Origin: Octopus vulgaris
Taxonomy: Eukaryota
DNA: 64,000 nucleotides
Reading direction: 5' to 3'
NCBI GenBank assembly: GCA_951406725.2
Contig: OX597819.1
Span: 61,380,001-61,444,000, forward strand
Part shown: positions 15,122-15,210 of the stretch, in pieces
How positions within the stretch are numbered: position 1 is the first letter of the stretch
How the letters are laid out: each line of letters opens with the position of its first letter
Program-made: the position numbers and the translations under genes
The notes under the pieces: generated by a model
Told to the model about the DNA's origin: nothing
The model's database searches: none
The model's input: only the letters and a program-made list of their open reading frames with translations

Positions 15122-15210
15122 AGTGAAACCAAGTAGCAACACCAAATGGCGGTGCCCCAGCATGGCCACAGCTCATAAGCTGAAACTAGAATCAATCAAT
15201 CAATCAATCA

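Follow-up and report, generated by a model that had tools for sequence, protein, structure and literature searches.

A predicted two-hairpin 3' tail common to CR1-type LINEs and a tRNA-like SINE of Octopus vulgaris

SINE-LINE pairs with common stem-loop tails are a textbook kind of partnership. In the eel pair UnaL2/UnaSINE and in zebrafish ZfL2-1 and ZfL2-2, the 3' end likewise carries a stem-loop with an internal mismatch or bulge, which precedes a short tandem repeat and is shared with a SINE, and a basic region lies between the endonuclease and the reverse transcriptase (RT), as in the octopus elements described here (available excerpts of PMC1636434 and PMC4176376). According to the same excerpts, ORF2p of the eel and zebrafish L2 elements binds the stem through this basic stretch (PMC1636434, PMC4176376), and in zebrafish L2 the loop sets the specificity while the stem is exchangeable (PMC4176376). 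A mollusc case is that of the bivalve LINE CR1-14_CGi with BivaV-SINE2 and BivaCORE-SINE1, also a CR1-type LINE with tRNA-derived SINEs, a stem-loop tail and compensatory changes (excerpt of PMC4824008). In the accessible part of a later paper CR1-14_CGi is reassigned to CR1-Zenon, and common tails of SINE-LINE pairs are given as 35-61 nt long and 72-95% identical (PMC11481361). By eye, the bivalve tail (sequence from the supplement) is AT-rich and bears no resemblance to the octopus tail.

Three octopus tRNA-derived SINEs, OK, OR1 and OR2, were reportedly described by Ohshima and Okada in 1994. The abundant tRNA-like octopus SINE analyzed here, SINE A, is presumably one of them. OR1 and OR2 are called CORE-SINEs, and no partner LINE is listed for OK, OR1 or OR2, in the consulted parts of PMC4824008 and PMC4758252; SINEs amount to 11.6% of the O. 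vulgaris genome (excerpt of PMC13282606). The literature that we searched describes for octopus neither this tail nor any SINE partner, and older subscription papers or Repbase reports may hold one. The available portions of PMC3747384 (with no mollusc term), PMC5786205, PMC9115989, PMC8967140, PMC3531059 and PMC13282606 contain no octopus tail or SINE partner.

LINE copies in the window and their classification

The window, i.e. the whole analyzed stretch of 64,000 nt (O. vulgaris assembly GCA_951406725.2, contig OX597819.1, positions 61,380,001 to 61,444,000), contains the following LINE copies:

9322-15210, plus strand: element 1, CR1 LINE, apparently full-length, between (TA)n arrays, with AT-rich tandem repeats in the 5' UTR
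18090-23723, minus strand: element 2, CR1 LINE, apparently full-length, between (TA)n arrays
15924-17400, plus strand: family 3 copy with a truncated 5' end, flanked by (TA)n arrays
55467-56231, minus strand: another copy of family 3, with 99.7% identity along 765 nt and the same tail at 55486-55536
41513-41600, minus strand: family 3 mini-copy, located within an array of the (TA)n type and made up of the two-hairpin tail and some 20 further bases

In element 1, ORF1 (11266-12177) is open and ORF2 contains a frame change at about 13898, whereas in element 2 ORF2 is open (18163-21282, 1039 codons from stop to stop, with endonuclease and RT) and ORF1 contains a frame change near 21520. The ORF2 of both elements comprises an APE endonuclease and an RT without RNase H (Pfam Exo_endo_phos and RVT_1 only). 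The LINE ends are of the CR1 type, with short tandem repeats and no poly(A), and 5'-truncated copies are present. An earlier note on this DNA had counted three LINE families. Family 3 is indeed distinct (39% protein identity to element 2), but elements 1 and 2 are sister subfamilies rather than distant families (76% amino acid identity and 74% nucleotide identity, the latter over 3.3 kb). The closest named ORF2 homolog was from Argonauta hians, and a single ORF1 homolog was found, from Octopus vulgaris.

The RT stretches matched, by eye, O. sinensis clusters 21 (element 1), 14 (element 2) and 46 (family 3) of the alignment in PMC10294476, cluster 46 differing from the family 3 RT by a residue or two. 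The available part of that paper assigns clusters 14, 21 and 46 (183, 115 and 52 RT members) to the Jockey superfamily, CR1 clade, by RT only, and mentions there neither their 3' ends nor a SINE partner. Judged by sequence, the LINEs of the window can be assigned to the same clade and superfamily. All 26 of the 26 rows of the alignment that carry the searched motif are from Octopus and represent about six RT types, three of them absent from the window (clusters O.sinensis_49/71/98, _156/25/48/51/79 and _201/37). In our RT tree, whose 69 rows comprised one locus in three, 21 of the 120 proteins and three window pieces, with no named references, elements 1 and 2, family 3 and the foreign relative L081 formed one clade with a support of 98; a second foreign relative, L166, whose contig holds no RT part, was not included. 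Two other assignments were considered and rejected: four Proto2 references were plainly different in their RT motifs, and the tail of BivaV-SINE2 / M.philippinarum_91, representing the CR1-Zenon tail group, was unlike the octopus tail by eye, the octopus clusters being typed as CR1.

Several features of the copies were observed aside from the tail. All five LINE copies lie in or beside (TA)n arrays (8300-9321, 15211-15923, 17401-18087, 23724-24200, 41420-41700 and 55380-55466), and a single array system at 9-24 kb contains three of the copies in a stack. ORF1 (11266-12177, plus strand; 22019-21160, minus strand) gave a weak N-terminal Myb/SANT-like match (PF13837, E 0.011, below the curated cut-off) and matched a single zinc finger of the CCCH type (Torus at E 4e-5 and zf-CCCH at E 0.007, both below the curated cut-offs). 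We know of no CR1 element with an ORF1 built from a Myb/SANT-like and a CCCH part; a search of the ESM Atlas with ORF1 returned nothing. ORF1 and ORF2 overlap at 12006-12177 in element 1 and at 21282-21160 in element 2, and a near-identical 50-nt stretch with a T run is present at the ORF2 frame opening of both; this stretch is possibly a signal for translational coupling or frameshifting. The 5' UTR of element 1 contains nested AT-rich tandem repeats (9795-11150, plus strand, periods 48-311), and that of element 2 is CT-rich and unrelated to it, though the ORFs are 74% alike; on comparison of the sequences, we read this as 5' UTR exchange. The leading bases of the family 3 mini-copy (41513-41600), about 20 in number, are unique in the window, and a short deletion lies behind its hairpin 2. 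A degraded old fragment belonging to this LINE group, without a recognizable tail, is located at 62243-62483 on the minus strand (44-52% protein identity to element 2, 71% nucleotide identity to element 1 over 77 nt), and an open frame of 339 codons with the Tc1/mariner transposase domains HTH_Tnp_Tc3_2 and DDE_3 at 56741-57760 on the minus strand.

Location and predicted fold of the two-hairpin tail

The four motifs reported earlier for element 1, element 2, family 3 and SINE A were all found in place, and the AAAC with a short tandem tail behind hairpin 2 was borne out for each of them:

15147-15168, plus strand: element 1 hairpin 1, with an outer and an inner stem of 4 bp each, separated by a G.G mismatch, and a 4-nt loop
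15169-15186, plus strand: element 1 hairpin 2 (15169-15182, 5 bp, 4-nt loop) with AAAC
15187-15210, plus strand: element 1 tandem tail of a 4-nt unit, followed by a long (TA)n array
18109-18149, minus strand: element 2 two-hairpin tail with AAAAC, hairpin 1 at 18149-18126, hairpin 2 at 18125-18114
17334-17383, plus strand: family 3 two-hairpin tail with GAAAC, hairpin 1 at 17334-17364, hairpin 2 at 17365-17378
32866-33292, plus strand: SINE A copy with a tRNA-like head, a body containing (TA)n(TG)n and a tail of LINE type
33241-33280, plus strand: two-hairpin tail of this SINE A copy with AAAC, hairpin 1 at 33242-33261, hairpin 2 at 33263-33276
2079-2120, minus strand: SINE A tail, one of nine in the window
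6653-6694, 24211-24252, 28276-28317, 48437-48478, 51842-51883, 59049-59090, 60431-60472 and, for the copy just listed, 33239-33280: the other SINE A tails
2533-2575, plus strand: variant tail not preceded by a SINE body and arranged back to back with the head of a minus-strand SINE (2069-2507)
43045-43086 (plus strand), 34932-34971 (minus strand), 7975-8011 and 36908-36955: diverged tails of SINE relatives

The tail begins 15-26 nt after the ORF2 stop, directly ahead of the tandem tail, and is present in all five of the five LINE 3' ends as well as in 14 SINE-type tails of the window. A covariance model detected 19 window tails at E up to 0.3. Five of them belong to LINEs (element 1, element 2 and the three family 3 copies), nine to SINE A, and the remaining five are diverged tails of SINE type. 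An Rfam search of the window gave no family at the gathering score, and a plain MAFFT alignment of nine tails ignored the structure. SINE A-like sequence makes up 8.7% of the window; in the head of SINE A, A-box- and B-box-like motifs can be recognized by eye, with no ARAGORN or Rfam tRNA match.

The two-hairpin fold was predicted as both the minimum-energy and the centroid fold for all four short window tails, with z-scores of -2.5 for element 1, -1.5 for element 2, -3.2 for family 3 and -3.4 for SINE A. When the four elements were folded in a context of 150-165 nt, the pair probabilities were 0.62-1.0 for hairpin 1 and 0.77-0.97 for hairpin 2. Hairpin 2 of element 2 was kept in three of five folded contexts and was beaten by an alternative upstream pairing in the other two. 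Hairpin 1 of family 3 is 7 nt longer than the rest and has another loop. A tail descriptor, which was composed after all six tails (the four of the window and two foreign ones) were known and with the hairpin 2 end picked per element, matched 0-3 of 2000 shuffles of each 120-nt end and one unrelated place inside the window besides the tails.

Tail-only copies were also considered as marks of RT stop sites. This idea was dropped: there are two such copies only (at 41.5 kb and 2.5 kb), and loose ends are equally explained by other subfamilies.

Covariation of the tail and its foreign relatives

The earlier note stated that the sequence of the hairpins changes while the pairing is kept. This held for hairpin 2, in which the second pair is A-U in element 1 and the SINE, G-U in element 2 and G-C in family 3, the fourth is C-G except for U-A in the SINE, and the fifth is U-A in element 1 against C-G. 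It did not hold for the core of hairpin 1, which is nearly invariant in the window, only the outermost pair being variable (U-A, C-G and A-U in the LINEs, unpaired in SINE A); since this core is identical in all four elements, it is by itself uninformative on covariation. On the four window elements the shuffle test was weak: 45 of 48 cells were paired, a value reached in 606 of 20000 shuffles; hairpin 2 contributed 18 of 20 paired cells as compared with 16.3 in shuffles (1745 of 20000 as high, p about 0.09), and hairpin 1 showed no excess (6831 of 20000 as high). Among 17 distinct window tails, which are related rows in an alignment fitted to the covariance model, 87.6% of the cells were paired versus 84.7% after shuffling, and 12 cells were doubly changed versus 5.3, neither value being reached in 500 shuffles.

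A fairer test than the 17-tail counts is the recovery of a held-out family. A covariance model trained on elements 1 and 2 and two SINE copies, and thus without family 3, recovered the tails of that family over their whole length (18.5 bits, E 0.0078), whereas a sequence-only model gave in the same test a partial match only (5.7 bits, E 1.8).

Outside the window, two relatives that reach their 3' end were obtained, L081 (43% protein identity) and L166 (34% over the C-terminal part); both are eukaryotic contaminant contigs in prokaryote assemblies and were chosen by protein likeness alone. Both have the two-hairpin architecture in new sequence, immediately ahead of a tandem tail. In the first hairpin U-G-G-U pairs with G-C-C-A, and a G-centred mismatch or wobble separates this pairing from an inner stem; the second hairpin adjoins the first, and an A-rich linker leads from it to the tandem tail. 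With these two added to the four window elements, 68 of 72 cells were paired as compared with 56.4 in shuffles (0 of 20000 as high), hairpin 1 alone gave 40 of 42 (8 of 20000 as high), and its inner pairs were doubly changed as well. The outer stem GGY/GCC is constant in the six lineages and both loops vary. Covariation among the four window elements alone is thus weak, and it is strong only once the foreign pair is added. The foreign tails are otherwise unremarkable in their predicted folds (z -1.3 for L081 and -1.7 for L166), hairpin 1 of L166 was not in the best fold in a 110-nt context, and the octopus covariance model detected neither tail. In 163 loci, searched on both strands over 1.22 Mb, the descriptor matched both ends plus seven further sites.

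One metagenome scan and the first genome scan gave 160 loci, nearly all of other CR1/L2-type lineages with other tails; coding-motif scans yielded only L081 again and L162, and 401 and 201 further genomes provided no added relative with a 3' end. Scans of viral contigs, prokaryote genome contigs and plasmids with the tail pattern gave no match. For L005 and L082, which fall inside the clade, the available DNA shows no two-hairpin tail, that of L082 stopping 29 nt past the match. At the protein level, 16 of 67 homolog C-termini can spell hairpin 1 by back-translation versus 5.6 in shuffles. A Gly/Pro-rich end motif of seven residues, in register with hairpin 1, whose innermost pair it would swap, was present in 18 of the 67 C-terminally extended homologs (P0014-P0118), slid controls giving 4-29 matches in that frame; after clustering at 60% it was left with four clusters versus three and three for comparable slides, and it was not counted as evidence. 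As a separate observation, animal-type LINE contigs are common in prokaryote assemblies (L081-L170; 261 of 359 candidate stretches), most likely as a result of host contamination.

Natural variation was also present in public sequencing runs. Contigs of four runs were aligned with the element 2 end, and those of the two deep runs showed five frequent tail variants. In three of these the affected pair is either retained as a wobble or improved, a fourth gains a pair at the base of hairpin 2, and the fifth disrupts the outermost hairpin 1 pair.

It might be argued that the hairpins are chance products of a GC-rich, partly palindromic sequence inherited by descent. The weak statistics for the four window elements alone and the self-complementary GGCC of element 2, which gives competing folds, would fit such an origin; the recovery of family 3 by the held-out model and the occurrence of the same architecture in other sequence in two foreign elements speak against it, and we regard it as very improbable. 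The modelled tail is thus supported as a conserved RNA structure of this LINE group that is common to the SINE.

The partner of SINE A and known SINE-LINE pairs

The likeness between SINE A and the LINEs starts at the foot of hairpin 1, with none in the 80 nt upstream. Within the tail, 32 of 42 bases of SINE A equal those of element 1 (76%), which leaves 10 differences; there are 12 between SINE A and element 2, and likewise 12 between the two elements. Its hairpin 1 is almost letter-for-letter that of elements 1 and 2, loop included, the loop of family 3 being different, and its hairpin 2 loop matches none of the three LINEs. The proposal that these LINEs are the motor of the SINE is therefore upheld in part: it agrees with the hairpin 1 loop shared with elements 1 and 2, but family 3 lacks that loop, the hairpin 2 loop has no match, the SINE tail is about as distant from elements 1 and 2 as element 1 is from element 2, and three more octopus RT types exist. 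Since the loop sets specificity in zebrafish L2 (excerpt of PMC4176376), the lineage of elements 1 and 2 is the most likely driver, family 3 being the least likely. Because of the 10-12 differences in 42 bases, the hairpin 1 loop shared with elements 1 and 2 only and the three further RT types, the partner of SINE A is likely this lineage rather than a named family.

A common insertion target supports the same lineage as the driver. (TA)4 was present within 50 nt after all five LINE ends and after four of nine SINE A ends, against a background of 4.2%. The binomial p is 3e-4 for SINE A and 0.002 for all SINE-type tails (4 of 14); five of nine SINE A ends and ten of 14 SINE-type ends are without adjacent (TA)4. 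A preference of the LINE copies for a microsatellite target is likely. By analogy with known stringent LINEs, the two-hairpin tail would probably serve as a handle for ORF2p of this CR1 subgroup, and SINE A would probably have obtained its tail from the element 1/2 lineage, to be copied by the enzyme of that lineage. The SINE A copies are about 82% alike and those of family 3 99.7%, hence the SINE burst may predate the young LINE families.

Alternatively, the tail may be the recognition signal while the motor is another CR1 family of the same subgroup outside the window, or the now extinct progenitor from which elements 1 and 2 arose; we give this somewhat less than an even chance. It would account for a SINE tail about equidistant from elements 1 and 2 with a hairpin 2 loop that matches neither, and for the three additional RT types from octopus that carry this motif in the alignment of PMC10294476. 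In addition, 6 of the 15 listed contig joints, together with loose ends at 18143-18145, fall at the hairpin 1 foot, as expected if other subfamilies share the tail only. On the other hand, 76% over 42 nt lies within the 72-95% of accepted bivalve pairs (excerpt of PMC11481361), and the element 2 contigs span a likeness from 99+ to under 90%, so that this lineage also has older copies; moreover, the alternative departs from the best explanation solely in the family named. Recognition could also be relaxed, all members of the subgroup reading a common shape and cross-mobilizing SINE A and the three LINEs, family 3 included. The constant GGY/GCC outer stem beside variable loops in six lineages, and the very young family 3 copies with the same (TA)n target, are consistent with that. 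Loop swaps in zebrafish L2, however, abolish or sharply cut retrotransposition (excerpt of PMC4176376), and the top of hairpin 1 is different and longer in family 3, which makes relaxed recognition rather unlikely.

The tail is likely the recognition signal for ORF2p; this reading follows from the analogy with eel and zebrafish L2 (excerpts of PMC4176376 and PMC1636434). A basic stretch between the endonuclease and RT is present in element 2 and kept in homologs. If the stringent L2 elements are taken as the model, a basic helix in this region, where element 2 has IPRERRILMRRR, would bind the stems. The constant recognized part would be the GGY/GCC outer stem with the G-centred mismatch above it, and the internal mismatch, as in L2, could act as a needed hinge. 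The loop region of hairpin 1 would confer family specificity and hairpin 2 would count by its shape only. The tandem tail would then prime target-primed reverse transcription at the nick, mostly in (TA)n.

As recognition is argued by analogy, and as the hairpins lie just after the ORF2 stop and several homologous ORF2s seem to read into them, the structure could instead serve RNA stability, 3' end formation or translation stop, the SINE having inherited it by template switch. This is improbable, as what the LINEs and the SINE have in common is precisely the 40 nt that precede the tandem tail, the site of the proven signal in stringent LINEs, and as the structure is kept in a SINE with no ORF. 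Starting from recognition by ORF2p, we tentatively suggest, at less than an even chance, that an unnamed CR1 subgroup spread across animal hosts (34-43% protein identity) uses a two-hairpin code made up of the GGY/GCC stem with its G-centred mismatch, the identity of hairpin 1 and the shape of hairpin 2, and that the dominant octopus SINE has captured this code and may be driven by several coexisting (TA)n-targeting families.

For the SINEs of O. vulgaris (11.6% of the genome in the excerpt cited above) no partner LINE is named in the literature searched, and the present result points to a definite CR1 lineage. The open ORF2 of element 2, together with a small set of naturally occurring tails in which stems and loops are exchanged, can be used to test LINE recognition, and the model of stem versus loop recognition, so far tested in fish L2, becomes testable in an invertebrate CR1 element.

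As compared with known systems, the octopus pair is a new case of the 'common tail' SINE-LINE partnership, the principle itself being old. Of the features by which a stringent pair is judged, homology confined to the last 35-60 nt was found for SINE A and element 1, and a conserved stem-loop with compensatory changes was found as well, weakly on the four window elements alone. The tails of UnaL2 and ZfL2, as presented in the excerpts available, are a single interrupted stem-loop of the L2 clade that is proven by assay, whereas the octopus tail consists of two adjacent hairpins, belongs to the CR1 clade and is predicted.
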